Below are positions 7,543 to 64,000 of a stretch of DNA of 64,000 bases, in pieces. Origin of the DNA: a virus (lineage: Duplodnaviria; Caudoviricetes); the IMG/VR virus record IMGVR_UViG_3300049792_000048, positions 64,001-128,000 of that record. One strand, given 5' to 3'. The translations under genes and the position numbers were made by a program. Every line of letters starts with the position of its first letter. The stretch's first letter is position 1. The notes beneath the pieces are model-generated. The model did not search any database. It was not told the origin of the DNA and saw only the letters and a list, made by a program, of their open reading frames with translations.

Positions 7543-8847
7543 ATGCACCTGTCTGATGTGGTCCTCGACATCTACGATGATCCGACGGCAATGGTCCTGC
7601 GGGCCAAGCTCGCCGGGCAGGAGCTCCCTCCGGTGCTCAGCGACTCGACGCTGCTCGATCCGGCCGATCTCGCCGTGCTTCCGGACCGTCTCTTCGCCCT
7701 CGTCGCCACGAACGGCGACGGAGTCGTTCGCAAGTACGCGATGCACGATGGCGCTCACGTCACGACGTCGATCGTCTACTTCCTGGAGAAGGGTCACCTC
7801 CTCCCCGAGACGATGCAGAAGAGTGCCGCCCGCAATCTCATCGCGGCGTGTCAGTGGTACGACCTCCAACCGCCCGACGAGCTCGTGAAGCGTGCCAGCG
7901 TGATCGATGCCGCCTTCGGAGCTCTCGACGTGAAGAGTCGCATGGAGGGCGCGCACGCCCAATCGAAGGCGAACATGGACGGCTTCCGGGCGGCGCAGGC
8001 TGGGATGTCCTCAGACATGCAGAAGCGTGCAGACCTGAACGGCACCGAGATGATGCCGATGTCAGGTTCGATCTCGACACTGCCAGCTCCTCGAAGTACG
8101 GCGAAGGGGAGCTCCAGCTCTTCGAGCTCGAAGCAGGGAGCCTGGGAGCACGCCGGGGACCTCACCTCGCATCGCCCGGTCGACAAGACCGCACAGCCCG
8201 TGTCGAAGTACGCGATGCCGTCCACGCATCGCTACCCCATCGACTCGTATGGAGATGTGAAGACCGCGGCGGCATACTTCGATGAGAACTGGGAGAAGTT
8301 CGAGCTCGACGACCGTCGCGAGTTCGCCGTCCACGTCTCGAATCGCCTGGAGGAGCTCGGTCTTCCGGTCGACGGCTTCATCGCGAAGTACGCCGGCCAC
8401 GAGTACGGCCCGAACATCGACGTCGAGCTCATGGCCCGCGTCCACAACTTCGAGGGTACCGGCCACGAGGCCGTCTACCAGGTCATGCTGGAGAAGCGGG
8501 CTTCCACGCCTGCCCACGTGATGGTCGAGATGCTGTACGAAGCAGACCTCGCCACCGGGGCCTCGGCGAAGTACGATGCCTCCCTCGGATTCCGTGATCC
8601 TTTCCAAGCCGTCTTCGGAAAGGTCGCGGAGAACAAGACGATGTGGTCCTGGTCGGAGGGCAACGAGTACGTCAACGACACGATGTTGACGGACCTCGCG
8701 GTCAACCGGTACCAGAGCCTCGATCGAGCTTTCGGAATGGACGTCCGGAAGAGCTTCCAAAAAGACCCCATCGGGACCTTCGTCTCGATGCCGGACCCGC
8801 AGAAAATCGTCATCGCGCGTCTCGCCGCGGACGATTCCAAGAGCTGA
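7543..8847 (+). CDS. Virion head-associated protein with two DUF6582-like repeats and KxA sites
   Basis: LPDRLFAL..RKYAMHDGAHV and RYPIDSYGDVKTAAAYF repeats; KRA, KTA and KVA motifs in linkers. Confidence 0.6.
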   Translation: MHLSDVVLDIYDDPTAMVLRAKLAGQELPPVLSDSTLLDPADLAVLPDRLFALVATNGDGVVRKYAMHDGAHVTTSIVYFLEKGHLLPETMQKSAARNLIAACQWYDLQPPDELVKRASVIDAAFGALDVKSRMEGAHAQSKANMDGFRAAQAGMSSDMQKRADLNGTEMMPMSGSISTLPAPRSTAKGSSSSSSSKQGAWEHAGDLTSHRPVDKTAQPVSKYAMPSTHRYPIDSYGDVKTAAAYFDENWEKFELDDRREFAVHVSNRLEELGLPVDGFIAKYAGHEYGPNIDVELMARVHNFEGTGHEAVYQVMLEKRASTPAHVMVEMLYEADLATGASAKYDASLGFRDPFQAVFGKVAENKTMWSWSEGNEYVNDTMLTDLAVNRYQSLDRAFGMDVRKSFQKDPIGTFVSMPDPQKIVIARLAADDSKS

Positions 8848-26358: not shown

Positions 26359-28437
26359 ATGGACCTCTTCACGAACGTCGCCCCCATCTTCCAGGACAAG
26401 GTCGCTGCCGTCCCGCTCGACGAGGATGCGGCGAAGTGGGGGCCGCAGATCCTCCAGGAGCTCTTCCGCCAGGTCCCCGAGGCCTCGGAGTACAACCCGC
26501 AGGTCGTGATGCTCCGGCAGGACGATGAGCAGGGCTTCGCTCTCGGAGTCATCGTCATCTCGGGACAGACGGACTCCGCCCTCTCGATGGCCGGCAACGA
26601 GCAGCCGACGTCGAAGAAGGCGTTGATTCCCGTGATCATCAAGAATACCGAGCTGTGTCCGCTCGATATCGTGATGACGCAGGACAAGCGCGTGTACCCG
26701 CTCAACGGCATCCGTCTCCGCGAAGCGTTGTTCCGCCCGAACACCTTCGACATGATGACGGACGACTCGGGCGACCAGAGTCTCTACTCGATGTTCTATC
26801 CGCCGGGACGCTCCTCGAACTCCCCCGGCTCGGGCTTCAGTGGCGGCGCAGGTGACAGCGTCAACTACGTCATGGGTCCGGGCATGAAGTCAGCCTCGAA
26901 GGTCGCCGCGGCCGTCGAGGAGTCGCTGCTGCATCGCATCGCGCCGACGCTGTCACAGGCCGACCTCGACATGCTCGGTGAGAAGATCTCGTCGCTGGGT
27001 CTGGAATCGCAGCTCAAGGAGAACCCGGCCTTCCTCGCGGTCGTGTCGCACCTGGCCAACTTCGATGGCCGTCTCCTCACGGAGGGGGATGCCGATCTTC
27101 TCATCGACAAGGCCGCCAGCTACGCCCCGATCGAGGTCGCTCAGTTCGGCTGGGACGAGGCACGCAGCACGTACTGGATGAAGACGGCGTCGCGCTCGAT
27201 CTTCGGCCTCAGCCGCGACGACATCGATCGTGGGCAGATGCTGAAGTTCGCGGGCCCCGAGCTCACGAAGAAGGTCGACACCGAAGGCACCGTCACCGTC
27301 TCCGAGCCGGCGAAGGACACTGCTCCTCTCGACACGACGAACGACCGCTGGGAGGTCATCGAGAAGCCGGGCGTCTATCGCGTCCGCGACATCAACGGGC
27401 AGGAGATGATGGGTTGGGTTCTCCCCTCGCTCGTCGACTTCGATGGCACCCGCGTTCCGATGGCCGTGTTCACGAACGGTGCGACGGCTGCGGTCCAGGG
27501 CTCGATCATCGGCGCGAAGATCTCGGACGCCTCGATGGGCCTTCCCGAGGACAAGCCGACGGGTTCGGGTCTCTTCTACGTGGTGACCCCCAGTGGCATC
27601 GAGGCGACCGTGCCGTTCAAGATCGAGGGCCGTGAGGCTTCGATGGATGGTGGCGACCTCGTCCACGTCACCACGCTCACCGGGCAGCCTCACACGGTCC
27701 GTCTCGTCCCGGGGCTTCAGCACATGATGCCCGGGGAGCAGGAGTGCTCGCTGCCTGCCTCGGCACGCTTCCTCGCACTGAACAAGGAGACGGCGGTGCC
27801 CCTCGTCGATGACCTCGAAGCGGCCAAGACCTCGGCTCTCAGCCAGCCGTTCATCGCCCTTCGTCACGGTGGCGACGTCATCGACCTCACCTTTCACAAG
27901 CTGCCGGGGTTCGAGGCTACGGTCCCGAAGCTCGCCTCGATCGAGGACACCATCTTCGTGCTCTGTGCTGCTGGCATGACTCCGCTGAAGGCGCACGAGA
28001 TCATCAAGCATGCCTCGCACACGATGCGCACCGAGCACGTGATCGGCGTGCACGACGTCCGCACGGTCGAGACGTTCATGCAGGACATCGAGAAGACGGC
28101 GTCCGAGAAGGTCGCGCAGGTCCGTGCTCTCCGGCAGGACCTCATCAAGGAAGCTTCGGTGCTGCCCGACATCCAGACCGTCGACAGCGTCCTCTCGCTC
28201 AACTTCCTGAATCCCGAGAATCTGCGGGTGTACGTCGGCAAGCTGCCGTACCTCGATCGAGCGCTCAACACCGTCTGCGAGCTCACGCTGTTCTCTCGCC
28301 TCGGTATGACCGAGGTTCCGGAGACGGCTGCGGCTCGTGCGGCTCGTGCGCTCGACGAGGTCATCCAGGGCCTCAAGGGCCTCGCGATGCGCACCGCAGA
28401 TGCCGACGGGACGCCGTCGGCTGCTGCCGCATCGTGA
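26359..28437 (+). CDS. Large KxA-rich virion (inner head/core?) protein
   Basis: KVA, KSA-KVA, KAA, KTA, KHA, KTA-KVA and KEA motifs; start inferred from the leaderless promoter. Confidence 0.6.
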   Translation: MDLFTNVAPIFQDKVAAVPLDEDAAKWGPQILQELFRQVPEASEYNPQVVMLRQDDEQGFALGVIVISGQTDSALSMAGNEQPTSKKALIPVIIKNTELCPLDIVMTQDKRVYPLNGIRLREALFRPNTFDMMTDDSGDQSLYSMFYPPGRSSNSPGSGFSGGAGDSVNYVMGPGMKSASKVAAAVEESLLHRIAPTLSQADLDMLGEKISSLGLESQLKENPAFLAVVSHLANFDGRLLTEGDADLLIDKAASYAPIEVAQFGWDEARSTYWMKTASRSIFGLSRDDIDRGQMLKFAGPELTKKVDTEGTVTVSEPAKDTAPLDTTNDRWEVIEKPGVYRVRDINGQEMMGWVLPSLVDFDGTRVPMAVFTNGATAAVQGSIIGAKISDASMGLPEDKPTGSGLFYVVTPSGIEATVPFKIEGREASMDGGDLVHVTTLTGQPHTVRLVPGLQHMMPGEQECSLPASARFLALNKETAVPLVDDLEAAKTSALSQPFIALRHGGDVIDLTFHKLPGFEATVPKLASIEDTIFVLCAAGMTPLKAHEIIKHASHTMRTEHVIGVHDVRTVETFMQDIEKTASEKVAQVRALRQDLIKEASVLPDIQTVDSVLSLNFLNPENLRVYVGKLPYLDRALNTVCELTLFSRLGMTEVPETAAARAARALDEVIQGLKGLAMRTADADGTPSAAAAS

Positions 28438-31800: not shown

Positions 31801-32226
31801 CTACTGCGGGCTCTTCCGCGTCGGGTGCGCCGCCGCGTTCATCGCCGCCTCGCGCCGCGCGAGGTAGCCACGCACGCTCTGCACGCCCTGGTAGCCACCG
31901 TAGCCGACCGCCACGAGGGCGCCCGTCACGCGCACGGCCGGGAGCGCACGCTTCAGCAGGGTGTCCGCCTGCACGATGAGCTTGCCGAACGTCGACACCG
32001 GCTCCGGCGGGACGACCGTGTCGAAGATGGCCTTCAGCGTCGCTTCGCTCTCGACCGCGTTGCGAGCCATGCCCGAGGCGATCTCCTCGACGCTGGTGAG
32101 GAGCTGCTTGTGGCGTTCCACATCGCGGCTCTCCTTCTCGTGGCTCATGCGGGCCGCCCACGCACGGTCCCCCTGCTCGTTGCCACCGTGGGTACGCTCG
32201 TGCTCGTTCGTCTGCGTCTGATCCAT
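31801..32226 (-). CDS. Hypothetical protein with C-terminal hydrophobic segment
   Basis: Own promoter motif, GGAG RBS and terminator (moron-like unit). Confidence 0.6.
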   Translation of the reverse strand: MDQTQTNEHERTHGGNEQGDRAWAARMSHEKESRDVERHKQLLTSVEEIASGMARNAVESEATLKAIFDTVVPPEPVSTFGKLIVQADTLLKRALPAVRVTGALVAVGYGGYQGVQSVRGYLARREAAMNAAAHPTRKSPQ

Positions 32227-32329: not shown

Positions 32330-34751
<2,422 letters not shown>

Positions 34752-34831: not shown

Positions 34832-35635
34832 ATGAACCTCGAAGCAAACACCTGGCACACGACTTCGGCTGAGCAGCTCACGCAGCTCGGCAAGACGGCA
34901 GCGCAGACTGCGGAGACGTCGGGCATGTCCCTGACGGATGCCGCAGTTCGCTCGATCGGCATGACGAAGCTCAACGAGCAGCAGATTCGTCGCGTCGTCG
35001 AAGCGGCAAATCACGAGGCCTTCCACCGGAAGTTCGCTTCCATGGATCCGTCCATGCGAGTGGTCGAGCTCGATGGTGGTCCCGCCGACGCGAGTGCGGT
35101 GATCGAGCGGCTCAAGGCTGCCTCGGCACCGGCACGTCCGCGGAGCATGTCGGAGTACTCGATGGAGCCCACCCGCAAGACGGCAGCCGTTTCGCAGTCG
35201 GGTGTCCACGACGTCTCCGAGAAGCGGGCTGCCCTCGCCGACATCAGTGAGCTGCGTGAGCAGCTCCAGGCCACGCACATCGACCTCGCCGAACGAGTCA
35301 GCGTGAGCAGCTACTACATCACCGAGGACGTTCAGAAGCTGGCGGCCATGGTGAAGAGTGCTTGCCTCGATGGAGCGTTCTTCGAGGACTTCGAGCGGGC
35401 CTGGGGAAGCATCAGCCCCAAGCACGCCACCGAGCTCCTCTCGGCGCTCAACCCCACCCGTGCACCCCACGGCGTGAAGACGGCAAGCCGGGTGATCTCG
35501 GAAGGTCACCCGATCCGCTCGACGTTCGATGCGTTCGTGAAGCATGCTCACGACTACGAGGTCGCCTGTGAGGCCCTTCGTGAGGTCGAGGGTGAGCTCG
35601 TCCGCGTTTCGGACTTCCTGCGGAGCAATCGATGA
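34832..35635 (+). CDS. KxA-saturated head assembly/core protein
   Basis: 10 of 11 lysines are in K-x-A; AGGAG RBS; first gene of the head operon. Confidence 0.65.
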   Translation: MNLEANTWHTTSAEQLTQLGKTAAQTAETSGMSLTDAAVRSIGMTKLNEQQIRRVVEAANHEAFHRKFASMDPSMRVVELDGGPADASAVIERLKAASAPARPRSMSEYSMEPTRKTAAVSQSGVHDVSEKRAALADISELREQLQATHIDLAERVSVSSYYITEDVQKLAAMVKSACLDGAFFEDFERAWGSISPKHATELLSALNPTRAPHGVKTASRVISEGHPIRSTFDAFVKHAHDYEVACEALREVEGELVRVSDFLRSNR

Positions 35636-35970
35636 ACCCCATCACGCTTCTGAAGCTGGCAGGTCTTGCTGAGGCTGCGAAGACCGTCGGCAAAGCCACG
35701 GGCAAGGTCTTCCAGGCTTCAGGAAGCGTGGGCGGGGCCATCGGGCGAAACCTCGGCTCGGAGGCGATCGGCAAGACGGTGGGCTATGCAGCTCCCGTTC
35801 TGATCGCCAACCATGCTGCCAACCAGTACGCTCCCACACGTCGTGGTAAGGCGTGGCTCGGACAGCAGATGGGTGCGGCAGGCAATGCCGTCGGATCTGC
35901 CCTCGTCCCAAGGGACTTTGGGGCTCGGCCGGGTGACTTCGGCGGTGGCGGTGGAGGAGGGTATTACTGA
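35632..35970 (+). CDS. Small Gly-rich virion protein with N-terminal KLA leader
   Basis: MNPITLLKLA then Gly/Ala-rich; coupled overlaps. Confidence 0.6.
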   Translation: MNPITLLKLAGLAEAAKTVGKATGKVFQASGSVGGAIGRNLGSEAIGKTVGYAAPVLIANHAANQYAPTRRGKAWLGQQMGAAGNAVGSALVPRDFGARPGDFGGGGGGGYY

Positions 35971-36587
35971 TGTTGATCTCCAAGCATGCGGTCGCACGTG
36001 AGTACGTCGGTGTCGTCGCGAAGACGGCCTCTCTCATGGGTCCTGGTGACCTTCATGCGTTGAAGGGCCTGGGGCACACGATGATGGAGGTCGCTCCGAT
36101 CGCCGTTCCGCTCGCCGCGCTCGCAGCTCAAGGCATCGGCGCCGTCATCTCGAAGATGACCGAGGCTTCACGCAAGGCGGGGGCCTACAAGACGATGATG
36201 GACCAGAACCCGCACCTCGCGGACAAGCCGTCCGAGGACGTGCAGCGGTACTTCAACACGCTCCATCGCCTGAACCCGGAGCTCGCGGGGGACCCCACGG
36301 TCGCGGCGAGCTTCGTGAACAACATGGTTCAGATGAACAACCCGATGAACCCGCACGCCGCGCTGTTCGAGCAGGCTCGTCAACTCAGCGCCCTCAAGCG
36401 CCCCGAGCCGGGTCACTTCGGCAAGGATCTCAGCGACGTCGTCCTTCGCATGGGCGATGCCTCCAAGAAGGACAAGTCGGAAGGCCTGCGCCACGACCTA
36501 GGCGTCCAGCAGCGGTACAACCGCATGCTCAAGAGCCACGTCCAGAAGATGCGTCGTGGCGCTGCCCACGCTCCCGAAACGACCTGA
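35970..36587 (+). CDS. Virion protein with KxA leader and hydrophobic segment
   Basis: KHA, KTA, then APIAVPLAALAAQGIGAVI. Confidence 0.6.
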   Translation: MLISKHAVAREYVGVVAKTASLMGPGDLHALKGLGHTMMEVAPIAVPLAALAAQGIGAVISKMTEASRKAGAYKTMMDQNPHLADKPSEDVQRYFNTLHRLNPELAGDPTVAASFVNNMVQMNNPMNPHAALFEQARQLSALKRPEPGHFGKDLSDVVLRMGDASKKDKSEGLRHDLGVQQRYNRMLKSHVQKMRRGAAHAPETT

Positions 36588-36590
36588 CCC

Positions 36591-38396
36591 ATGATGCTGA
36601 AGCGTGCGTTCTCGTCGGCTGAAGGCGAGCCGCCGGTTCATCTCATCGAGGCCGGGCACATGACGAAAGTCGCCGGCGCGCTTCCGCTCGTCGAGGACTT
36701 CATCTCGCGTCTGCGTCCAGACCCCAAGTACATGTTCACTCACGTGAACGCCATGGGGTACTCGGAGTACTACGGGCCGAACTCGAACGTCGACTACTAC
36801 GGGTACAACCCACACCTCGACTTCAACGGTCTGCTGCACGCTCCCGAGACGTGTCATCTGCACGGCGAATACGAGAACTGGGAGACCGATCCCGTCGTAC
36901 AGGCTCGCATCGCGAAGAGCTGGCCATTCGGTTACCCCAGCTACTACGGCGCGACGGTCTACGCCCACCACAAGAACTCGGACCCCACCTCGTTGGGCTT
37001 CGGGGATGTCGTGTTCGTCGCCCGCAACGAGGCACAGAAGCGCATCGAGCTCGTGATGCGAGTCGATGTCGACCTCGCCATGCAACGTGGTCACTCTGCG
37101 ATTCTTGATAGGATCGGACGAGGCGATCGAGTCGATGTCTCGATGGGCTGCAAGGTCCCCTTCGACTTCTGCTCGATCTGCACCGACTGGGAGGCCGTAA
37201 AGAAGGCCCAGAAGGGCTACGACCCCAAGCGCCACGCCAGCCCAGGTGTCGCCATCCTGGTGTATCACCGGACCGTGAAGCCCATCCGTGGGCTCGCCAT
37301 TACGAAGGCTGACTACTGCGACCACATGGTCAAGCAGCGTGGGCAGGTACTGGACGATGGCCAGAAGGTCTTCGTCTACAACGACTATCCACGCTTCTTC
37401 GACATCAGCTTCGTGTGGATCGGAGCTGACCGCACCGCACGCGTGATGTTCTTCATGGGTGCGAATGGCAGCCGGCCCGGGGAACGTCAGCGTCCTCAGA
37501 GTATCGGTGAGCTCGTGAAGGGGGCTTCGGACATGTCGAAGACAGCCAGTGAGAAGGCGGAACCTGGAACCCTTCTCACCCGAGACCGCCTCCGGAAAAT
37601 GAAGAAGATGGCAATGGAGAAGGAGATCCCTGGAGGCATCACACGCAAGGTCGAGCTCTGCGCCAACTCCGAGATGGATATCCCGTTCGGAGAGCTGGCC
37701 TCCTTCTCGAAGGAGGTGGGGGCAAAGACCCTGCTCTCTACGCTCGCTGGTCTGGGCATAATGCTCAAGCCGAACGAGTTCCATGGCGTCGTCGGCACCG
37801 AGCACCCGCTTCACGCGAAGGTCGCCGCGATGGCTGCCGAGCACAACATGACGTTCAGGACATCGCTGCCTGGATACGAGACTGGCTATGCCGTGGACCC
37901 CGCCCTCTTCTCGCCCAAGTTGGCGGAGAAGCTCATGCCTTACGTCGAGCACCGCTCTTCGTTTGCCCCGCATCTTCACTACCGGCTCGGCACGATGGCG
38001 AAGACGGCTTCGGCCCCTCTTCCACAGCTACTTGATGCCGTGTTCGTTCATGATGTCGCGGCTCTTTACAATGGGTATCGGGCCTCGCTCCTGAAGCAGG
38101 CTGAGCACCTGATGCCGAAGTACCACGAGGTGTCTCCACCCGACTTCGAGCAGTTGACGAAGACAGCCTCGCTGGCGGGTCTTCTCCTGTCTTCATCCAC
38201 CGTGGTACATTGGATTTCGGCTCACCTCGAAAAGGTGGCAGAGGTCGAAGAGGAACTTGGTGCTGCTGTGAAGTACGTGATGACAAGCCCCAACTACCGT
38301 AAGCTCAGTGCTCTCGGTGACGAGGTTTGCGCCACGATGAATCGGAGCACCAACTTCATCTCCGGGCTCCGGAACGCGGTGCAGATCGCACTGTAA
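36591..38396 (+). CDS. Prohead (maturation) protease, HK97/assemblin-like, with Zn-ribbon insert and KxA-rich C-terminal extension
   Basis: VYAHH (His), DVSMG (Ser) and FFDISFVWIGAD follow the HK97-type H...S-x-G...E/D-I-S-x-V-x-x-P/G-A pattern; CSIC..CDH insert; upstream of scaffold and MCP. Confidence 0.75.
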   Translation: MMLKRAFSSAEGEPPVHLIEAGHMTKVAGALPLVEDFISRLRPDPKYMFTHVNAMGYSEYYGPNSNVDYYGYNPHLDFNGLLHAPETCHLHGEYENWETDPVVQARIAKSWPFGYPSYYGATVYAHHKNSDPTSLGFGDVVFVARNEAQKRIELVMRVDVDLAMQRGHSAILDRIGRGDRVDVSMGCKVPFDFCSICTDWEAVKKAQKGYDPKRHASPGVAILVYHRTVKPIRGLAITKADYCDHMVKQRGQVLDDGQKVFVYNDYPRFFDISFVWIGADRTARVMFFMGANGSRPGERQRPQSIGELVKGASDMSKTASEKAEPGTLLTRDRLRKMKKMAMEKEIPGGITRKVELCANSEMDIPFGELASFSKEVGAKTLLSTLAGLGIMLKPNEFHGVVGTEHPLHAKVAAMAAEHNMTFRTSLPGYETGYAVDPALFSPKLAEKLMPYVEHRSSFAPHLHYRLGTMAKTASAPLPQLLDAVFVHDVAALYNGYRASLLKQAEHLMPKYHEVSPPDFEQLTKTASLAGLLLSSSTVVHWISAHLEKVAEVEEELGAAVKYVMTSPNYRKLSALGDEVCATMNRSTNFISGLRNAVQIAL

Positions 38397-38464
38397 CTCC
38401 CCTTCCGAGGCTGCTTCGCGCGGCCACCGACGATCGGGCAACGACGAACGACGAGGTAGACATC

Positions 38465-39319
38465 ATGATGGACTTCGAGACGAAGATCGCAGCGGCGGGT
38501 GATGCTCTGATGAAGCTGGCGGCGGACCGCGGCCTCACTCTGAACGACTTCACGGAACAGGAGTCGATGGACCTCCTGGAGATGCTCATGGGCGAGCAGA
38601 ACAAGACCGCAGGAGAGGTCACGCCTGCGGCAGCGGCTCCGGCAGCCGTGACTCCTCCGGCGCAGGGCGCGGAGCCGACGGACAAGACGGCGAACGAGCA
38701 GCCGCAGCTCGACTACGGCATGGTGATGGCCGAGGTCGTGAAGGTCGCCGCGGCGAACAAGTTCGACCTGACGACGGCATCGCCCGCGGAGCTCAACGAC
38801 GCCGTCCAGAAGATGGCGGCGCTCATGAGCGACCCCACCTACGCGACGAAGCAGGCCGCGTTCCAGGAGAAGCTTGCAGAGGCCGACGCGATCGGCCGCG
38901 TGATGGCTCACTCCTACGTCGACGAGCTCTCGAAGATCGCCGAGTCGAACAAGGTCGCCAGCAAGACCGAGGACGAGAAGCGCGAGGAAGAGAAGAACGA
39001 GAAGAAGGCCGCGTTCGTTCGCGAGCTCCGCGCGAAGACCGCGGGCGAGATGCCCGAGGCCTTCAAGAAGCACATGAAGGGCAAGGGCAACGAGGACGAC
39101 AAGGGTGGCAAGGGCGACGAGAAGAGCGAAGACGACAAGAAGAAGGAAGAGGCCGAGAAGAAGGCTTCCTTCGCCAAGATCGCCGAGCTCCGTGCCGCGC
39201 AGATCCTCATCGAGAACGGTGTCAACCCGGCCACGAGCGAGAAGTTCGCTTCCGCCGACGAGCAGGTCGACGCTGCGGCTCTCAACCTCCTCGCGCAGAA
39301 GGGCTACAAGGTCGGCTGA
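38465..39319 (+). CDS. Scaffold-like protein with about 15 KxA motifs (start ATG 38465)
   Basis: GAGGT RBS; charged helical protein lying between protease and MCP. Confidence 0.7.
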   Translation: MMDFETKIAAAGDALMKLAADRGLTLNDFTEQESMDLLEMLMGEQNKTAGEVTPAAAAPAAVTPPAQGAEPTDKTANEQPQLDYGMVMAEVVKVAAANKFDLTTASPAELNDAVQKMAALMSDPTYATKQAAFQEKLAEADAIGRVMAHSYVDELSKIAESNKVASKTEDEKREEEKNEKKAAFVRELRAKTAGEMPEAFKKHMKGKGNEDDKGGKGDEKSEDDKKKEEAEKKASFAKIAELRAAQILIENGVNPATSEKFASADEQVDAAALNLLAQKGYKVG

Positions 39320-39337
39320 GCCGGCACCTGAGCACAC

Positions 39338-39574
39338 GTGATGAGCACCCACCCCAACTTGATGTTCGACAGCTTCCTGAAGACGGCGTCCACCGCCTCT
39401 GTCAGGCCAGCTTCGTCGTACGCCTCGTCGGGGATGGGTGACGCATCACAGAAGCTCAAGGTGACGAATGCGCCCAGCAAGTCGCAGTGGTCGTCACCGA
39501 ACCCGTCTCAGGCAACCCCCAACCAAAGCCCGTTCGCGGCTCAGAAGAACGCACCGCCTCCGCCGGTGCAGTGA
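39338..39574 (+). CDS. Small protein with FDSFLKTA leader
   Basis: Fills the gap in the head operon; Ser/Pro-rich after the KTA. Confidence 0.5.
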   Translation: MMSTHPNLMFDSFLKTASTASVRPASSYASSGMGDASQKLKVTNAPSKSQWSSPNPSQATPNQSPFAAQKNAPPPPVQ

Positions 39575-39584
39575 GGAAGACGTC

Positions 39585-40487
39585 ATGCGAAAGCTCAGTG
39601 CACTGGTGAATACCGCACTCGAATCCGCGAGCGAGAAGATCGCCTCGACGGTCGATGCGAGCGCAGCGGAAGCCGTGAAGGCTGCCGAGGCCGAGAAGCG
39701 TGCCGCGGCGGCTGCTGCCGTTCCGGTCCGCACGAAGGAGGCCGAGAAGCGCGCAAGCGTGATCACCACGGCAGCCGAGGCCGTCAAGGTCGCCGAGGTG
39801 CTGGAGCATCTCGCGGTCGTGATGCCCAAGCTCGCCGAGATGGGCACGAACCGCGGTGGTGGCAGCACGAACGTGCAGGACCGCACCGGCCCCGAGATCC
39901 TCACGTCGCCCGACAAGGGCGTGACGAAGGACACGATGACGTCGGCCTCGTCGATCCCGGCGCAGCGTGCGCATTCGGGCGGTGGCCCCGGCCACGGCAT
40001 GCACATCGAGACGAACAAGAACGACGCGCCCTGGAGCAAGTCCAAGAGCGCGGCCGAGGAGATCCTCACGGCGAAGATCGCACAGAGCAATGCTCTGCTC
40101 GCGGTCGGTCGTGCGAAGGAGGCCACGGAGCTCGCGAACACGGCTCGCACCGAGTTCGAGACCGCCAAGAAGGCGTACGAGGAGGAGGATGCCTCCACCA
40201 AGACGCCGCACGGCAACCCGAAGTCGCTGGCGACGAACCGCAACCAGGGCGACCTCCCGGTCCCCACGGGTCCGGTCCGTGACAACGCGGGCATGATCTC
40301 GATGACCAAGCGCGACGCCAAGACGAAGGACGTCCGCGCCGAGGCAGGCAAGCACGTCTCGGAGACCGCTCTCTCGGCGAAGACCGACAAGGGTCTCTCC
40401 GACAACCTCGACCACATCGAGGGGGCGAAGATCGCTTCCATCCTCGACACCGCGGCAGCGCGAAAGGCGGCGGCCACGGCCGCCTGA
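39585..40487 (+). CDS. KxA-rich scaffold/core protein (start ATG 39585)
   Basis: KIA, KAA, KRA x2, KVA, KLA, KSA, KIA x2; GAGGA RBS. Confidence 0.65.
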   Translation: MRKLSALVNTALESASEKIASTVDASAAEAVKAAEAEKRAAAAAAVPVRTKEAEKRASVITTAAEAVKVAEVLEHLAVVMPKLAEMGTNRGGGSTNVQDRTGPEILTSPDKGVTKDTMTSASSIPAQRAHSGGGPGHGMHIETNKNDAPWSKSKSAAEEILTAKIAQSNALLAVGRAKEATELANTARTEFETAKKAYEEEDASTKTPHGNPKSLATNRNQGDLPVPTGPVRDNAGMISMTKRDAKTKDVRAEAGKHVSETALSAKTDKGLSDNLDHIEGAKIASILDTAAARKAAATAA

Positions 40488-40499
40488 AGGGAGACGAAC

Positions 40500-40904
40500 A
40501 TGGACCTCATCAAGCTCGCTTCGGATTCGCCTGCCGTCCTTCTCGAAGGCGCCAAGACGATCCGCAAGCTCGCGTCGGACAACGTGGAGCTCCAGGCCGA
40601 CAAGATGGCTGCGCTCCACCAGCTCCACATCCACAAGCTCGCGATGCTGATGCACGAGCGCGGCCTGGAGCCCGCTCTGTCGCTGTCGGAGAAGGTCGCG
40701 CATCTGAGTTCGGTCGAGCCCTCGAAGCTCGATGCGATCGAAGCCGCCGTCGAGATGAGCGCGGGCGGCTTCAAGCTGGCGACGCTTCGCACCGACGAGG
40801 AGACCTCGTCTTCGCACGGTGCGGGGCCGACGACGTTGTCCGGGGAGCTCGGTTCCTCGGCGAACTACGACCGACTGGACGCGCTCGTCCAGGCGATCGG
40901 CTGA
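40500..40904 (+). CDS. Small KxA-rich scaffold-like protein
   Basis: 6 of 8 lysines in K-x-A; C-terminal YDRLDALVQAIG helix. Confidence 0.65.
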   Translation: MDLIKLASDSPAVLLEGAKTIRKLASDNVELQADKMAALHQLHIHKLAMLMHERGLEPALSLSEKVAHLSSVEPSKLDAIEAAVEMSAGGFKLATLRTDEETSSSHGAGPTTLSGELGSSANYDRLDALVQAIG

Positions 40905-40931
40905 TCCACACCGAGGAACCAGACAGGAGAG

Positions 40932-41414
40932 ATGATCATGAGCACGAACGATCGGAAGTTCGAGGTGGTGTTCCCCACGTCGTGGGATCGCCTGATGCGC
41001 CCCGCGATGGAGGTCGCCGACAAGGACCTCCTCAACCCCAACATCTCGGGCAAGGTCCCGCTGATGGATGGTGAGTTCGTCACGGAGGACAGCTCGTACA
41101 AGCTCGTCCGCGCGACGGACCAGACGGCCCTCGTCCCCGCCTACGCCTTCCTGGAGTGGCGTGGTGACTACGGCATGCAGGCGGCGGGCAAGGCCGCCAT
41201 CCTCAAGGGCGGCACGTACGAGGCGGACACGATCGTGTACGACGCGACGTCGCTCGTTCTCCACAGCCCGCTCATGACGGGCGCGGCAACGGTCGGTGGC
41301 CAGACGCGGTCGGGTCTCATCCTCCGCACCGGGTCGAACCTCATCATCGGCTACGTGACGCGGCTGGCAATCACCAACGGTGGTCGTCTCCGCTTCCTTC
41401 AGACGGCGGTCTGA
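40932..41414 (+). CDS. Probable capsid decoration/stabilising protein
   Basis: 160-aa beta-rich protein immediately before the MCP; AGGAG RBS. Confidence 0.55.
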   Translation: MIMSTNDRKFEVVFPTSWDRLMRPAMEVADKDLLNPNISGKVPLMDGEFVTEDSSYKLVRATDQTALVPAYAFLEWRGDYGMQAAGKAAILKGGTYEADTIVYDATSLVLHSPLMTGAATVGGQTRSGLILRTGSNLIIGYVTRLAITNGGRLRFLQTAV

Positions 41415-41459
41415 TCCGGTAGTCGGACGGACGGACACAAAAGGAGACAGGAGAACATC

Positions 41460-42572
41460 ATGCTGCACGATGCAAAGGAGCTGACCCTTCAGCACCTCTC
41501 GAACCCCGACGCGAAGACCAAGCTCGCGGCGGAGGTCGGGGGCTACATCCGAGACCGGCTGCGCGAGGCGTCGTTCCTGGAGCGGGTCCTCCCGCCCCAG
41601 ACCGTCACGCGCAGCGACTGCCAGATCTCGGTCAACCACGACTCGCTCGTGAAGATCGAGCACCTGGAGCCGCGTTCGCGCGCCATGGTGGTCACCTTCC
41701 GTGGCGAGCCGTCCGCCCGTCTCCTCCGCGGTGAGCGCGTCGAGGTGCCGTTCATCACCATCATGAGCGAGATGTACCAGAAGCCGGAGCAGGAGTTCCT
41801 GGCCTACCCGTACCCGCTCGGGAAGGTCGTCGAGCAGAACTCGATCCGCGACATCGGCGAGATCCAGGACCGTCAGTTCCTGATCTACTCCGAGGCCGCG
41901 GTGCAGGCCCTCCAGACCGAGGCGAACGGCACGACGACGTCGCTCAATGCGACGGCGCTCCAGAGCTCCACGCCCCCGGTGGAGTTCTCGGTCATCAAGG
42001 GCGAGCTCGCGCGTGCGGTCTCGACGAACGACGCGATCGTTCGTCCGATCCAGCGCCCGGACATCGTCAACCTGATGAAGCTCCTCGATGGCAACCGCCT
42101 CGAATGCGAGCTCATCCTCATCACGAGCAAGGATCTCGACGACGTCCTCCAGTGGACGATCGAGGACCAGGGCTCGAAGGTGCAGAGCGAGACCACCGTC
42201 CAGGGCTGGCAGTTCAACACCCTCCTCGGCAAGAAGCTGATCCGGACCATCAAGACGGACATCCTCCGTCCGGGCAACGTGTATGCGTACACGTCGCCGG
42301 AGTTCCTGGGTCGCTTCTACATCCTGAACAACGTCAAGTTCTACATCGACAAGGTGATCAACCTGATCAAGTTCGTCGCGTGGAAGGACGTCGGGATGAG
42401 CATCGTCAACGTCGCGTCGGTGCGCAAGCTGGAGCTCTACTCCGGCGACGCGACGTCGCTGAACGCCGACTCGGTTCTCGCGTCGGTCTCGCCGAAGGTC
42501 GAGGAAGATCTCGGGGCGCCGAACAACCGCGCCGCGGATCGCACGTTCTTCCCGGGCGTCGTCTCCTTCTGA
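41460..42572 (+). CDS. Major capsid protein (HK97 fold likely)
   Basis: Position after protease and scaffolds, double RBS, very strong codon bias, IRDRLRE..F.ERVLPP, GE.....RGERVEVP and EIQDRQFL features; followed by hairpins. Confidence 0.8.
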   Translation: MLHDAKELTLQHLSNPDAKTKLAAEVGGYIRDRLREASFLERVLPPQTVTRSDCQISVNHDSLVKIEHLEPRSRAMVVTFRGEPSARLLRGERVEVPFITIMSEMYQKPEQEFLAYPYPLGKVVEQNSIRDIGEIQDRQFLIYSEAAVQALQTEANGTTTSLNATALQSSTPPVEFSVIKGELARAVSTNDAIVRPIQRPDIVNLMKLLDGNRLECELILITSKDLDDVLQWTIEDQGSKVQSETTVQGWQFNTLLGKKLIRTIKTDILRPGNVYAYTSPEFLGRFYILNNVKFYIDKVINLIKFVAWKDVGMSIVNVASVRKLELYSGDATSLNADSVLASVSPKVEEDLGAPNNRAADRTFFPGVVSF

Positions 42573-45195: not shown

Positions 45196-47693
45196 GCATC
45201 ATGAGCCACGACCTCGACAAGACCTTGCTCTCGACCTTCAAGCCGACGAACCCCATCGGGTTCATCGACGGCTCATTCTTCATCGCGGGGATGAAGAAGA
45301 TGGCGGAGGGCGAGATGCCCGAAGCCGGTGCAGCCGAGGGCCCTTTCCTCGTGCCTCTCCCGCAGGCCGTCGAACTCATCGCACAGATGGTCTCGAACGA
45401 GTTCAAGACGCAGACGTACTACGTCTACTACGCGAACATGCTTCGTGGCCTCTCTCACGAGGGGATCGCGGAGGAGTTCATGGAGCATGCGGGGCACGAG
45501 CTCGAACATGCCGACTACCTGCTGCGGCGCATGAGTGTGCTGTCGCCGGGCGGCGTCTCGATCCCGCCCTACCCGCCGCCCGAGCCGCTGCACGACCCGA
45601 ATGAGATCGTGCAAGCGATGATCGTCGTCGAACAGATGGGCCTCACGCTGTGGAAGCAGCTCCACAGCATCTGTGGCGAGAACCCGATGAAGTTCACCAT
45701 CGAGCAGTTCCTCCAGCGCGAGGAGGAGCACCAGGATGAGCTCTGGCAGCTCGTCGAGCCCGCGGGCTTGCCTGCCATGCCCGTGGCTGAAGCTCCGGCT
45801 CCGACTGAGCAGTCCGCCGAAGGTCAGCCGGCATCGACGAAGGTGCAGGTCGAAACGACTCCGTCCGAGCCGAAGCAGGCAGCGGTCGCCACGTACGACG
45901 AGCTTCGTCGTGCAGGCCTCGATCCCAGCAAGAGCAAGAAGGCCGCCGACCTCACCGCTGGTGCCCGGTCCGAGATCAAAGACGACAACTTCGTGTTCCC
46001 TGCGGAACGCAAGTACCCCATCCACGACAAGGACCACGCCCTTGCCGCTCTTGGGATGGTCGGCATGCACGGCACGTCCGATGAGAAGTCGAAGGTGCGT
46101 GCAGCCGTCGAGAAGAAGTTCCCCGGCATCCACGAGCACGAGAAGAAGGCGGCGATGAAGGGCTTCCTCCAGAAGCGTATCGCCGACCTCAACAAGGACA
46201 TGGATGCAATCCACCACAAGGACCAGGTCCGTGTGGAGTTCGTGCCGCAGTCGCCCGCCGCACTTCGTGCACAGAAGCCGGACGTTCAGAAGAAGACCGA
46301 CAACGCGAAGTCGCCGAAGGACGTCTCGATCAAGCCGGTAGGTGCTCCGATCTCGCTGGTCGACCTCATCGAGAAGGGGAAGTCCGCTGCATATGTCGGC
46401 GGTGCGGTGCTCCCGAACAGCACCGACTTCTTCAAGAAGCACAAGGAGAACGAGAAGAAGTCGGACATGGTGATGCCCGATGCCGATTCTCCCGAAGCGT
46501 ACATCGAGCGTGAACAGCAGCTCGGTGCGCAGCAGGCGATGGCCGAAGCCTCGCACGCCAAGACCGTCGCGATGCAGGCCTCACAGGCGGCTCAGCAGGC
46601 GCAGGCAGAAGCTCAGGCTGCTCAGCAACAGCTCATGCAGGCCCAGCAGCAGGTCGAGCAGCTCACGCAGCAGTCCCAGATGGACTCGCAGCAGGCAATG
46701 ATGGCGACGCAGCAGGCTTCGGAAGCGGAAGGCCGTGCTGCCGATCACTCGATCCAGAAGATGCAGCTCGGCATGCGCGTCAACCAGATGCGGCAGGAGC
46801 TCGCCAACTTCGTGATGCAGGACCCGGTCGCCGAGTCCGCAGCCACGGTCAGTGACCTCGCCGCTCAGGGCATGCCGGCCACTCCCCAGCAGCAGGCGGA
46901 GGCCGAGGTTGCCGCACAGACCGGGGTCGCTCCTGGTCAAGAAGGAGCCCCCGGGCAAGATTCCCAGGATTCTGCGCCAGGGGGTCAGGAACAGGCCGCA
47001 GGAGGCCAGGAACAGCCCTCCGGTGGTGAGGCCAAGGGCGACGACAAGGGCGGCAAGCCTGGTACTCACGTCACCGTGAAGACTTCGGTCGACGTCGCGA
47101 CGATCGTGGGCAAGCGTGGTATCCGCGGTGCCGTCGGCGCTGCTGCGGCTCCCGCGGCTGGGGGTCTTGGTGCCCTCATCCAGAAGGCTCGTCCGTATCT
47201 GCCCGCAGCAGGTGCAGCGGCTGGTGGTCTCGCTCTCGCGGGTGGGGCCATGGCGAGCCGTGACAAGAGCGCGGGGGTCGTCGACTCCGTGGGTCGTGCG
47301 ACCGGACGCAGCATCGCTCACGGTATGGGTGAGGCGGCGACCGAGGCGTTCGCGAAGCACGCACCCAATGCAGGTGCGGCTGCTCTCGCCGGCGGAGGCA
47401 TCCTCGCTGCTCACAGCATGCATGCTCGCTCTCAGCGCAAGTCCGACATGGCGGACTCGGTCGCCGAGGGGATCCGTCGTGCGAAGACGGGTTCTCATGG
47501 TGACACCGCTGAGCGTGCGGTGAACGCTGCCATCAACCACGGTGTCGGATCCGCCCAGCGCGGTGTCCACGCCCTCGGTCCGCATCTTCGTGACCACATG
47601 CCCGCGTTCGTCGCTGGCCTCGGCACCGGCATCCTCGGCACGAAGGTGCTGTCGTCGCCTCCTCCCATCGACCCGTCGCAACAGCAGTACTGA
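45192..47693 (+). CDS. Modular virion polyprotein: ferritin-like domain, DUF6582-like domain, Gln-rich coiled coil, Gly-rich membrane modules
   Basis: Di-iron pattern NEFK..Y..ELEH..EQ..EEEH; FVFPAERKYPIHDKDHA; modules bounded by KMA, KQA, KAA, KSA, KKS, KTS, KSA and KTG. Confidence 0.75.
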   Translation: MSIMSHDLDKTLLSTFKPTNPIGFIDGSFFIAGMKKMAEGEMPEAGAAEGPFLVPLPQAVELIAQMVSNEFKTQTYYVYYANMLRGLSHEGIAEEFMEHAGHELEHADYLLRRMSVLSPGGVSIPPYPPPEPLHDPNEIVQAMIVVEQMGLTLWKQLHSICGENPMKFTIEQFLQREEEHQDELWQLVEPAGLPAMPVAEAPAPTEQSAEGQPASTKVQVETTPSEPKQAAVATYDELRRAGLDPSKSKKAADLTAGARSEIKDDNFVFPAERKYPIHDKDHALAALGMVGMHGTSDEKSKVRAAVEKKFPGIHEHEKKAAMKGFLQKRIADLNKDMDAIHHKDQVRVEFVPQSPAALRAQKPDVQKKTDNAKSPKDVSIKPVGAPISLVDLIEKGKSAAYVGGAVLPNSTDFFKKHKENEKKSDMVMPDADSPEAYIEREQQLGAQQAMAEASHAKTVAMQASQAAQQAQAEAQAAQQQLMQAQQQVEQLTQQSQMDSQQAMMATQQASEAEGRAADHSIQKMQLGMRVNQMRQELANFVMQDPVAESAATVSDLAAQGMPATPQQQAEAEVAAQTGVAPGQEGAPGQDSQDSAPGGQEQAAGGQEQPSGGEAKGDDKGGKPGTHVTVKTSVDVATIVGKRGIRGAVGAAAAPAAGGLGALIQKARPYLPAAGAAAGGLALAGGAMASRDKSAGVVDSVGRATGRSIAHGMGEAATEAFAKHAPNAGAAALAGGGILAAHSMHARSQRKSDMADSVAEGIRRAKTGSHGDTAERAVNAAINHGVGSAQRGVHALGPHLRDHMPAFVAGLGTGILGTKVLSSPPPIDPSQQQY

Positions 47694-47702: not shown

Positions 47703-48635
47703 ATGGATCAGCTCAACAAGTTCTTGATCGACACATTCGGCGGCACCAAGTTGGCCTCGGCCACTCCGATCGAGGCAGTCGAGCCGAACGAGTACGATCG
47801 CATCGCGTTCAAGCGTGCCTTCCTGGACGGCTGCGTCGACGAAAAGTTCCTCGCATCGTTCGAGGGGACTCCTCTCGCTCCGCAGGCGATCGCTCTGTGT
47901 GAGCAGGAGCTCGCAATGGAGCAGGCTCAGCTCCAGGCTCGCATGGCTCGTGACGCGCAGAACGCCGCCTTCGACTACACGAAGGAGTGCAACGAACGCG
48001 AGGGCATGAGGCTCCAGAAGCTTCAGCTCACCATCCAGCTTCACAAGATGAAGACGATGGGCGTCGGCGCTCCGACTCCTCCGGGCCAGGCCGTGATTGG
48101 TACGCCCGATCCTGCGGCTGCTGCGATGGCTGCTCCGCCCGAGCTGGGTGGGGGTGCCGAAGGTGGGGCTCCGGTGCAGGAGCCCGCTGGTGGCAAGCTC
48201 GCCGCTCTCATGACGAAGGTCGCCGAGAAGAAGAACAAGGCGAAGGACGAGATGATCAGTCGAGGCCGTCGTGCCAGCACGGGCGCGACCATCGGCAACG
48301 TCCTGGGCTCCCCAGTCTTCAGCCAGGAGTTCACTCCCGGCTCGATGATCGGCTCCGTGATCGGTGGCGGCATCGGTGGCGCTGTGGCTGACGGTGGCCG
48401 TGGCGCCCTCATGGGAGCGGCGGGTGCGGGCGGTGGCGCAGCGATGGGGGCCCTCGCCGGGCATGGTGTCGCGAAGGCTCTCAAGCTCCGTGACCCCGGC
48501 CTCGCTCGTGGACTCGGCTCCCTGATGGGTGCGACATATGGAGCTCCGATCGCCGTCGAAGGCGGACGTGCAATCGCCGAGGCGCAGAAGCGCGCCAGTC
48601 TCTCCGAGCTCATCCAGTTCTCGCTGGGGAAGTGA
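47703..48635 (+). CDS. Virion protein: KLA leader, coiled coil, Gly-zipper membrane module
   Basis: KLA, KLA-KVA and KRA motifs; GSVIGGGIGGAV and GAAMGALAG. Confidence 0.6.
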   Translation: MDQLNKFLIDTFGGTKLASATPIEAVEPNEYDRIAFKRAFLDGCVDEKFLASFEGTPLAPQAIALCEQELAMEQAQLQARMARDAQNAAFDYTKECNEREGMRLQKLQLTIQLHKMKTMGVGAPTPPGQAVIGTPDPAAAAMAAPPELGGGAEGGAPVQEPAGGKLAALMTKVAEKKNKAKDEMISRGRRASTGATIGNVLGSPVFSQEFTPGSMIGSVIGGGIGGAVADGGRGALMGAAGAGGGAAMGALAGHGVAKALKLRDPGLARGLGSLMGATYGAPIAVEGGRAIAEAQKRASLSELIQFSLGK

Positions 48636-62579: not shown

Positions 62580-64000
62580 ATGCCCTTCCAGAGCAAGGCA
62601 CAGCAACGCAAGTTCTTCGCGATGGAAGCGGAGGGGAAGCTTCCCAAGGGGACTGCGATCGCTTGGGCTCATGAAACCAAGGACATCAAGGCGCTGCCGG
62701 AGAAGGTCGGCTGTGGAGACATGATCCAGTACTTCCACGACCACCCCGACAAGCTCCGCGAGAAGAAAGAACGGGACCGGAAGAAGGAGTCGAACTTCAA
62801 GTTGCACGGTGAGCGGGAGTTCCGCGGTCTCGACATCGCGATCGAGAACAAGAAGGGGACGAAGCGCTCCTGGTACGATCCGCACGGCAAGGAGAAGGGG
62901 TCAACCTTCATGCACTACGACTATGGTTACATCCGGCTCACTGAGGGCACGGATGGGGACCACGTCGATGTGTATATCGGGCCGTGGGGAGATGCGCCGG
63001 ACGTCTTCATCATCGACCAGATGAAGAAGCCCGATGGGGAGATCAAGAAGGACGGCGTCGCCTGGACGAAGTTCGATGAGCAGAAGGTAATGCTCGGCTT
63101 CAAGGACGAGGCGACGGCAAAGGCTGCATACCTCAAGCAGTACAACGACCCTCGGTTCTTCGGCTCGATCAAGGCCATGAACTTCGAGGAGTTCAAGATG
63201 AAGGTGTTGGACAAGGACAATCACGGTCAGAAGATCGCACTCGCGATCTCACCGACAGCGATCAGCCACCTCGGCCATGCCGGAGTGGGTGCAGGCATCG
63301 GCGCCGTCGCCGGCGGTCTCGGTGGCATGATGCACGCCGATGCAGGCCAGCGTCAGCAGGGAGCCCTCCGTGGAGCTCTTGTTGGAGCTGGGCTTGGTGC
63401 CGCCGGCGGCGCAGGCATCTCTGCGCTCAAGACGCAGGGGGCTCACCAGCTCAACACGCTCCGAGCTCAGGCAGGTTCGGCGGAGCTCGCAGCTCGTGAA
63501 GCCCACCAGGTCGCCGGCAAGACGATCGCAGACCCAGCTCTGGCGGGCACCATGCATGCTGGAGCTCCGGCAGCTCTCGGACGCAGCACAGCCGCGGCTC
63601 GTCCCGGTGTCGCCGGCGGAGCAGGTGGTGGGGGCGGCCTCGCTCTCAACACCCAGCAGAAGCAGGTCATGTCCCCCACGGCCTGGGGTGGCTCCTCTGC
63701 GTCCATGAAGCCCGAGCTCGCTCAGTCGATCGCTGCTTCCCGTGGCGGCCAGGCAGAGGCACTGAGGCGGGCAGCAGGGACCCTCGAACAGCAGCACGCC
63801 GCGATGAACAAGGGGCTGAACCGTGCCGGCCTCGTCGGGGCTGCCGCGGGCACCGGCTTGATGGGGTACATGGCGGTGCCTCACCAGTACGGTGGCGTCA
63901 GTCCGGGCAAGCAGGCCTCGGAAGATCCCCGCACCTCACGCATCGCAGATCGCATCGACGACGTCGGCATCGCGACGCTCGCCTCACCCTATCTCGCTGA
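62580..64000 (+). CDS. Modular virion polyprotein (partial; not in ORF track): MPFxSKAQ module, inorganic pyrophosphatase-like (InPase) domain, Gly-rich membrane modules
   Basis: Manual translation MPFQSKAQQRKFFAM..LPEKVG..KKES-NFKLHG..IENKKGTKR..DYGYI..TEGTDGDHVDVYIG..FDEQKVMLGF..QKIA-LAIS..GAGIGAVAGG..GKQA; open to the window end. Confidence 0.8.
   Translation, partial: MPFQSKAQQRKFFAMEAEGKLPKGTAIAWAHETKDIKALPEKVGCGDMIQYFHDHPDKLREKKERDRKKESNFKLHGEREFRGLDIAIENKKGTKRSWYDPHGKEKGSTFMHYDYGYIRLTEGTDGDHVDVYIGPWGDAPDVFIIDQMKKPDGEIKKDGVAWTKFDEQKVMLGFKDEATAKAAYLKQYNDPRFFGSIKAMNFEEFKMKVLDKDNHGQKIALAISPTAISHLGHAGVGAGIGAVAGGLGGMMHADAGQRQQGALRGALVGAGLGAAGGAGISALKTQGAHQLNTLRAQAGSAELAAREAHQVAGKTIADPALAGTMHAGAPAALGRSTAAARPGVAGGAGGGGGLALNTQQKQVMSPTAWGGSSASMKPELAQSIAASRGGQAEALRRAAGTLEQQHAAMNKGLNRAGLVGAAAGTGLMGYMAVPHQYGGVSPGKQASEDPRTSRIADRIDDVGIATLASPYLA

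Follow-up and report, generated by a model that had tools for sequence, protein, structure and literature searches.

Lys-x-Ala in the head proteins of a large tailed phage and its relatives: a probable recognition code of a prohead maturation protease

Why should a lysine followed, after one free residue, by an alanine (K-x-A) recur through protein after protein encoded around the major capsid protein (MCP) gene of a tailed phage? The stretch of DNA in which this question arises (the window) comprises 64,000 nucleotides, bases 64,001–128,000 of a 195,774-bp IMG/VR viral contig (IMGVR_UViG_3300049792_000048) with direct terminal repeats and a guanine–cytosine (GC) content of 60%. Genome-wide, 256 genes were called with a codon-usage model trained on the same genome, and open reading frames (ORFs) are named here by their start in the window (Table 1). 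A sequence-only reading, based on hand counts, had proposed that the phage cuts its proteins after K-x-A, with S or G also accepted at the third position, thereby fragmenting its scaffolds and trimming a propeptide of 23 residues from the MCP. Here, we report that a strict, conserved heptapeptide built on K-x-A marks a fixed set of head-module proteins together with the N-termini of the candidate protease and of the MCP, and we argue that K-x-A is probably the code by which the phage's own prohead maturation protease, which would be the N-terminal domain of ORF 36591, recognises its substrates.

Enrichment of Lys-x-Ala in head-module proteins

When composition was corrected for by shuffling the residues within each of the 256 proteins, K-x-A exceeded expectation in exactly seven of them, all encoded inside the window (z 3.9–7.4; Table 1), and the remaining 249 proteins, pooled, contained ~263 copies against ~264 expected. 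The excess noted in the sequence-only reading thus persists after composition correction, and its hand counts were correct: K-x-A covers 10 of the 11 lysines in ORF 34832 and six of the eight in ORF 40500, it occurs 16 times in the 284 residues of ORF 38465, the MCP (ORF 41460) has the single site K21-L22-A23, and the sheath (ORF 51942) has two sites among its 21 lysines. About half of the ORFs that the same reading listed as motif carriers turned out to have counts at chance level (ORFs 35632, 35970, 45192/45201, 47703, 48632/48635, 50303 and 62580; z ≤ 1.3), and some of these are notable solely for the N-terminal position of a site. ORF 45192/45201, with nine copies against 8.0 expected and mostly negative flank scores, was rejected as a supported substrate.

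The sites in this genome read K-x-A-[S/A/G], and their surroundings set them apart from other occurrences of the same tripeptide. Scored with a flank position-specific scoring matrix (PSSM) trained only on relatives with <70% identity, the sites in the seven proteins had a mean of 1.47, compared to −1.44 for the other K-x-A in the genome (Mann–Whitney p 2e-15). Each of the four alanine codons is found at the sites, which places the signal at the level of the protein; a DNA-level motif was ruled out on account of this mixed usage.

K-x-A proved to be a protein-level signal that extends across the clade and is restricted to head-module proteins, which supports the interpretation given in the sequence-only reading. 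An IMG/VR scan with ORF 36591 returned 70 loci (25–93% identity, GC 38–67%). When all 400 X-x-Y pairs were ranked in each locus, K-x-A came first in about 55 of 72 loci, frequently with L-x-K or M-x-K in second place, and an X-x-E pair came first in none of the 72. In 142 independent family representatives, sharing ≤50% identity with one another, K-x-A was again the top pair (1473 observed, 679 expected) and lay above expectation in 141. As a positive control, the T4 core proteins gp67, gp68, gp21 and gp22 were ranked in the same way, and the top two pairs were I-x-E and L-x-E, which is the experimentally established code of the gp21 protease (PMC5694885). Broken down by protein family, the ratio of observed to expected K-x-A was 5.0x for the family of ORF 40500 (P 3e-28), 3.7x for ORF 34832 (P 2e-84), 3.3x for ORF 26359 (P 3e-70), 2.4x for the protease, 2.0 for ORF 39585 and 1.9 for ORF 38465; the families without enrichment were TerL (0.68x), the decoration-like family of ORF 40938 (1.0x) and the MCP (1.16x).

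The only cultured relatives found by tblastn were Salmonella phage Arash, Vibrio phages D181, D148 and D69, and Bacillus phage G, in which the match to gp19 is confined to the N-domain of ORF 36591. The order of the head-module genes is syntenic in Arash, D181 and phage G. Syntenic genes of Arash and D181 carry the motif (for example, as EKTASAR, LKTAAAV and VKEASAG), as do the N-termini of their proteases (TKQAAAA and EKSAAAN) and of their MCP (GL[VT]KEAGAAMS). In phage G, gp19 has eight K-x-A against 2.45 expected and gp21 has seven against 2.8.

The motif is fuller than K-x-A. A logo pooled from 1,643 sites reads [L/M/F/I]-[E/V]-K-[T/L/V/I]-A-[S/A]-[A], with information only between positions −2 and +4, counted from the lysine, and it can be condensed to [LMFI]-[E/V]-K-[TLVI]-A-[S/A], in which Lys and Ala are strict. 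After K-x, Ala alone is enriched (K-x-A 3.3x versus K-x-S 0.83x and K-x-G 0.68x), which contradicts the A/S/G degeneracy that the sequence-only reading had allowed at the third position; before x-A, Lys alone is enriched (R-x-A 0.75x, V/L/I-x-A about 0.8x), and i+2 is the only enriched spacing for the Lys–Ala pair. The residue following Ala is preferentially Ser (3.6x) or Ala (1.6x), with bulky residues and Pro depleted, and position +3 excludes bulky or charged residues. Depletion of Pro reaches 0.1x at +1 and 0.2x at +3. In the pooled data, K-x-x-S and E-K pairs are enriched too.

Ortholog alignments indicate what is kept at the individual sites. In many of them, K and A are 85–100% conserved, compared to 10–40% for the middle residue and 30–40% for the flanks, and other sites turn over among orthologs with site density preserved. 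In ORF 34832, K21, K175 and K216 keep K and A around a variable middle residue. ORF 38465, which follows the protease gene in the position of the scaffold-like gp223 of Arash, has conserved sites at K17, K93, K136 and K260. In ORF 26359, which is conserved in 32 related loci and is syntenic with Arash gp218 and Vibrio D181 0273, the sites at K275 and K597 are near-invariant. This ORF occupies the place where a portal gene might be expected, and searches for a portal match gave little: phmmer returned noise, and a portal appeared only at Foldseek rank 31 (E 0.06). Its AlphaFold2 (AF2) model has a predicted template modelling score (pTM) of 0.39 and gave no significant Foldseek match. The Pfam DUF6582 match of ORF 7543 is weak and below the cut-off, and a search of ten head-module proteins against Pfam and PHROGs returned an MCP match and no match to an annotated protease.

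The candidate protease and the N-terminal sites

ORF 36591 is located in the head-morphogenesis module, upstream of the scaffold-like genes and the MCP gene. The AF2 model of its residues 1–305 (predicted local distance difference test score, pLDDT, 86; pTM 0.84) was compared with 48,161 representative chains of the Protein Data Bank in an exhaustive VIA-align search. The two top matches were the varicella-zoster virus (VZV) protease (Z 9.1, 122 residues aligned) and T4 gp21 (Z 8.9, 133 residues aligned), both scores lying just above the background of 7–8 stated for the tool, and the next were the proteases of human cytomegalovirus and of Kaposi's sarcoma-associated herpesvirus (Z 6.8). The top Foldseek matches were all herpesvirus proteases, with weak E-values (0.06–0.5). 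Judged from the predicted model and its VIA-align matches, the N-domain of ORF 36591 has the assemblin/T4 gp21 fold, so that the ORF encodes a protease domain of this fold, in line with the interpretation given in the sequence-only reading.

At the level of sequence, ORF 36591 had no Pfam match at E ≤ 0.1, the S78 model included, and a search of the whole genome with PF04586 found nothing. PHROGs yielded only an unannotated family (E 0.002), and a profile built from 46 homologous N-domains (down to 29% identity), run against the sequences of solved structures, hit nanobody noise only and no protease. Combined with the fold match, the want of any curated-family match points to a fold-level relative that forms a separate, unannotated sequence family. 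This family is large, with at least 4,402 clusters at 50% identity (E ≤ 1e-3), 1,978 of them at E ≤ 1e-30. Homologs of ORF 36591 fall into 591 clusters at 90% identity, and the 120 that were listed are all named 'hypothetical' and are without a Pfam protease domain.

In the alignment of the 46 N-domains, K26, H127 and the block S184-M-G-C-K-V-P-F-D, with D192, are invariant, and A28 and D271 are near-invariant. H127 precedes S184 (His-then-Ser order), and the fold match suggests that these two residues are catalytic; their spacing of 57 residues is near that of T4 gp21. Many protease homologs are 900–1,400 residues long and contain intein/homing-endonuclease domains (PF14528, PF05203, PF13403). 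In these, the profile match breaks in two near position 175, immediately upstream of SMGCKVPFD, and some have two to three insertions.

Both ends of the predicted protease domain carry the motif. The ~28 residues leading up to the K26-x-A28 site are not part of the fold and were modelled with low pLDDT, and the ~25 residues before K26 vary among the 46 homologs. K-x-A occurs within the first 50 residues in 138 of the 142 representatives, typically as [FL]-E-K-T-A-[SA]. At the other end, most relatives have K-x-A-[S/N] directly after the last strand of the domain, and the C-terminal extension of ORF 36591 (~300 residues) contains nine K-x-A sites. Were all sites cut, the protease core would span about residues 29–312. 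A nested scaffold start of the UL26.5 or Nu3 kind was sought inside ORF 36591, and no internal start with a convincing Shine–Dalgarno sequence was found.

The identity of the MCP is corroborated by a tblastn match to the annotated Arash MCP (E 1e-22). Among 46 distinct relatives, 39 have K-x-A where the alignment places the MCP site, and Arash and Vibrio D181 have it with a one-residue gap; the K21-x-A23 site singled out by the sequence-only reading is thus conserved in about 41 of 46. The residue that follows the site in the relatives is E, A or Q. If the MCP is cut after Ala, its predicted mature N-terminus would be AEVGG. More generally, a K-x-A with good flanks within the first 40 residues was found in 12 of 38 virion-module genes versus 6 of 218 others (Fisher p 2e-7). 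The leader of ORF 47703 is, on its sequence, a candidate cleaved targeting leader, and similar leaders are present in ORFs 39341, 48635 and 35970.

Proposed cleavage and its alternatives

We infer cleavage at K-x-A by analogy with the characterised assemblin-fold proteases, all of which read a P3-x-P1 code, and from the form that the sequence constraints take: the i/i+2 spacing, the extent of the constraint upstream, the preference for a small residue behind Ala and the avoidance of Pro fit K as P3, A as P1 and S/A as P1′. Provided that cleavage takes place, the cut likely falls after Ala, as in herpesviruses. The protease would then cut after Ala inside the assembled prohead, remove its own N-terminal propeptide of ~28 residues and free itself from its C-terminal extension. 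The scaffold-like products of ORFs 34832, 38465, 39585 and 40500 would be chopped to pieces of roughly 50 residues or less, small enough to exit the shell; for ORFs 34832, 38465 and 40500, cutting at all sites would yield peptides of ≤46 residues. The protease would also process ORFs 26359 and 7543, and short N-terminal leaders would be trimmed, including the 23 residues of the MCP.

Several observations speak against this scenario. In no member of the clade has a product of cleavage been seen, and the virion mass spectrometry (MS) of Arash lists the motif-rich gp220–gp225 with high 'coverage', which, taken at face value, means that uncleaved forms were present. The Arash table is, however, inconsistent (100% coverage from two peptides), the preparation contained many non-structural enzymes, and the supplement consists of annotation only; the Arash paper itself contains no protease or cleavage analysis (PMC10585845). 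In ORF 26359, several sites fall within strands or helices that are predicted with confidence, and a protease may be unable to reach them there. The segment around the MCP site is conserved on both sides and could therefore be a structural feature, so the conservation of the site alone is no proof of a propeptide. Finally, our choice of Ala over Lys as the residue in front of the scissile bond draws only on analogy and on how the constraints are shaped. In a preprint on phage G (10.1101/2024.12.16.628780), gp19 is called a head maturation protease, and the searches reported there were fully tryptic. Since trypsin cuts at the P3 Lys, a fully tryptic search is blind to the predicted neo-N-termini, and this blind spot may explain why the code escaped notice.

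Part of this evidence would also suit a motif that is not cleaved at all, in which K-x-A-[S/A] serves as a multivalent binding or capsid-targeting element that docks scaffold, cargo and protease to the inside of the MCP shell or to one another, in the manner of encapsulin cargo-loading peptides. Such docking fits the termination of short N-terminal leaders by the motif in otherwise unrelated virion-module proteins, the motif's presence inside predicted folded elements of ORF 26359 and the report of motif-rich Arash homologs in particle preparations. Nevertheless, the 9–12 copies in the protease precursor and scaffolds in which nearly every lysine is part of a site suit degradation better, the strict i/i+2 spacing with its free middle residue, small next residue and lack of Pro is the substrate grammar of assemblin-fold proteases, and a proven cleavage code, that of T4, leaves the same signature in the statistics. 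Docking and cleavage are, moreover, compatible, as the capsid-targeting sequences of T4 end in the cleavage motif (PMC5694885), and we consider docking without cleavage improbable. We find it scarcely credible that K-x-A is a by-product of helical, Lys/Ala/Glu-rich composition, of coiled-coil periodicity or of a DNA motif, with no signal function. The richest proteins are indeed Ala-rich (14–20% Ala) and predicted to be helical, and the additional enrichment of K-x-x-S and E-K pairs could be read in the same way; however, the within-protein shuffles already take out composition, the enrichment is specific to i+2, to K and not R, and to A and not S or G, and the motif also occurs in non-helical N-terminal leaders and at the N-terminus of the protease. 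The flank PSSM distinguishes these sites from other K-x-A, and the mixed Ala codons, the GC span of 38–67% and the retention of K and A while their neighbours vary likewise argue against a by-product.

A further alternative accepts a cleavage code and disputes either the bond, which might be K↓x-A (the arrow marking the cut), or the enzyme, which might come from the host or be a second phage protease. The data presented here give no direct fix on the scissile bond, at some sites it is Lys that is conserved more strongly, and phage G also encodes ClpP/ClpX (10.1101/2024.12.16.628780). Yet constraint reaches back two to three residues upstream of K but ends one to two past A, which corresponds to P5–P2′ and a cut after Ala, and the small S/A/G at the next position matches the A↓S sites of herpesviruses (PMC4498786). 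As for the enzyme, the motif tracks the protease family across Vibrio, Salmonella and Bacillus-group hosts and across GC contents of 38–67%, and this co-occurrence argues against a host enzyme; in addition, the termini of the protease itself bear the motif. A different bond or a different enzyme therefore appears unlikely to us, and recognition of K-x-A by the N-domain of ORF 36591 remains the probable explanation.

Genome context and known maturation systems

The head genes of interest sit in a co-directional virion module, in which TerL (29924) is followed, further downstream, by ORFs 34832, 35632 and 35970, the protease gene 36591, ORFs 38465, 39341, 39585, 40500 and 40938, and the MCP gene 41460. 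Between the terminase and the head-assembly genes, this co-directional morphogenesis module is broken by two genes on the minus strand, the GyrB-like topoisomerase II gene and a small ORF. Several other genes of the window deserve mention. ORF 45201 encodes an 830-residue virion-module protein with a ferritin-like domain (PF00210, E 1e-11, residues 58–184), beyond which it consists of low-complexity, Gln-rich and Gly/Ala-rich hydrophobic segments; such a ferritin-like protein, which may be packaged inside an HK97-fold capsid, recalls encapsulin cargo. A single ORF of 2,065 residues starts at 18452. Arash, the distant cultured relative, packages RNA polymerase subunits in its particles (PMC10585845). 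Gene 62580 runs past the end of the window, to about 64451, and its residues 66–213 match PHROG families annotated as endolysin, minor head protein, virion structural protein and DarB-like antirestriction protein (E 1e-23 to 1e-14), which gives it the appearance of a virion-associated enzymatic domain.

Table 1. Features of the window, with positions counted from its first base and K-x-A counts compared to within-protein shuffles
Feature	Position	Strand	K-x-A observed / expected (z)	Remarks
ORF 7543, 434-aa protein	7543..8847	+	11 / 2.75 (5.3)	weak DUF6582-like segment
ORF 18452, 2,065 aa	18452..24649	+		
ORF 26359, 692-aa conserved virion-module protein	26359..28437	+	12 / 3.2 (5.4)	
TerL	29924			PHROG 675, E 5e-47
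Small ORF	31801..32226	−		
GyrB-like topoisomerase II large-subunit gene	32330..34282	−		PHROG 543, E 3e-157
ORF 34832, 267-aa head-module protein	34832..35635	+	10 / 1.6 (7.4)	10/11 Lys in K-x-A
ORF 36591, 601-aa predicted prohead protease precursor	36591..38396	+	12 / 3.5 (5.0)	predicted N-terminal assemblin-fold domain, about residues 29–295
K26-V-A28, predicted N-terminal autoprocessing site	36666..36674	+		K26 invariant, A28 ≥90% in 46 homologs
His127 codon, candidate catalytic His	36969..36971	+		invariant column in the N-domain alignment
Ser184 codon (SMGCKVPFD), candidate catalytic Ser	37140..37142	+		invariant block in the N-domain alignment
ORF 38465, 284-aa charged scaffold-like protein	38465..39319	+	16 / 6.0 (4.8)	
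ORF 39585, 300-aa Ala-rich head-module protein	39585..40487	+	13 / 5.3 (3.9)	
ORF 40500, 134-aa protein	40500..40904	+	6 / 1.1 (5.1)	6/8 Lys in K-x-A
Major capsid protein, 370 aa	41460..42572	+		PHROG 2522 'major head protein', E 1.2e-8
MCP K21-L22-A23, predicted propeptide cleavage site	41520..41528	+		conserved K-x-A
ORF 45201, 830-aa ferritin-like virion-module protein	45201..47693	+		
ORF 47703, 310-aa Gly/Ala-rich protein	47703..48635	+		N-terminal leader ending K16-L-A↓S (predicted cut), flank PSSM 4.2
Sheath	51942			downstream of MCP
Gene 62580	62580..64000	+		

Of the known maturation systems, the herpesvirus assemblin/pUL26 (MEROPS S21) supplies, with the VZV protease, one of the two top structural matches of the ORF 36591 N-domain. 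Like ORF 36591, pUL26 is an N-terminal protease fused to a C-terminal assembly/scaffold region; it is released by self-cleavage, which would hold for ORF 36591 as well. P1 would be Ala in both, followed by Ser or a different small residue at P1′, with which the phage statistics are compatible if the scissile bond is placed as we predict, and the K-x-A-[S/N] that stands right after the protease domain in most relatives resembles the herpesvirus R-site. The herpesvirus code, at the R-site and the M-site, is (V/L/I)-x-A↓S, with pseudorabies virus sites at YLQA-T and VQA-S (PMC4498786). Unlike the hydrophobic P3 of herpesviruses, P3 in the phage is strictly Lys, and whereas herpesvirus substrates have one or two sites, those of the phage have many, as suits fragmentation; in addition, no sequence similarity is detectable between the two, and the host is bacterial.

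According to the model, T4 gp21 (5jbl) has the same fold as the ORF 36591 domain (Z 8.9, root-mean-square deviation 2.9 over 133 residues), and the two systems have in common the P3-x-P1 grammar and the footprint in the unbiased pair scan. T4 shreds its scaffold and core (gp22) and trims propeptides and targeting leaders, its substrates being gp22, gp67, gp68, the internal proteins (IPs), gp23 and gp24, and the phage would do the same. On the other hand, T4 has Glu at P1 and Leu/Ile at P3, where this phage would have Ala and Lys, respectively, and gp21 is a stand-alone protein of ~210 residues with no sequence-level relationship to the 601-residue fusion. HK97 gp4-type enzymes (Pfam Peptidase_S78) are further assemblin-fold prohead proteases, encoded between the portal and the MCP. 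In HK97, a delta domain of the MCP takes the place of separate scaffold proteins.

Giant phages provide another precedent in phiKZ gp175 and SPN3US gp245 (MEROPS S80), prohead proteases with many substrates among the head and ejection proteins, which they process at a short P3-x-P1 motif. The code of T4 gp21 is L/I-x-E, and that of phiKZ and SPN3US is S/A/G-x-E (PMC5694885). The phiKZ and SPN3US proteases self-cleave, and multiple copies of the motif occur within propeptides (PMC5694885, PMC10052503). Unlike the cut predicted here, theirs falls after Glu, and their code was derived from semi-tryptic MS, whereas K-x-A comes from sequence statistics only.

It is tempting to extend the comparison and to suppose that the family in ~160–500-kb phages cuts Ala↓Ser/Ala like assemblin, that Ala↓Ser cleavage and the protease–scaffold fusion are ancestral in Duplodnaviria, that the Glu of T4 and phiKZ is derived, and that the strict P3 Lys is new. 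We offer this only as a tentative scenario and rather doubt that it holds in full.

Prohead-protease codes are experimentally known in very few phage lineages (T4, phiKZ/SPN3US), and all of these are post-Glu (PMC5694885). We found no description of a Lys-x-Ala prohead specificity in the literature that could be searched, which included part of that on phage G. As a kind of system, cleavage codes of prohead proteases are well known; the specificity, the sequence family and the scale are new here. Salmonella phage Arash, Vibrio phage D181 and Bacillus phage G are all in culture and allow direct testing. If our interpretation is true, it would establish which sequence a very large and unannotated family of proteases recognises and would make the mature virion proteins, the propeptides and the packaged cargo of thousands of uncultured large phages predictable from sequence. 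It would also correct the way in which searches of virion proteomics data are set up for Arash-like phages and for phage G. Moreover, the code would be a phage counterpart to the A↓S specificity of herpesviruses, with a bearing on the common origin of both maturation systems.

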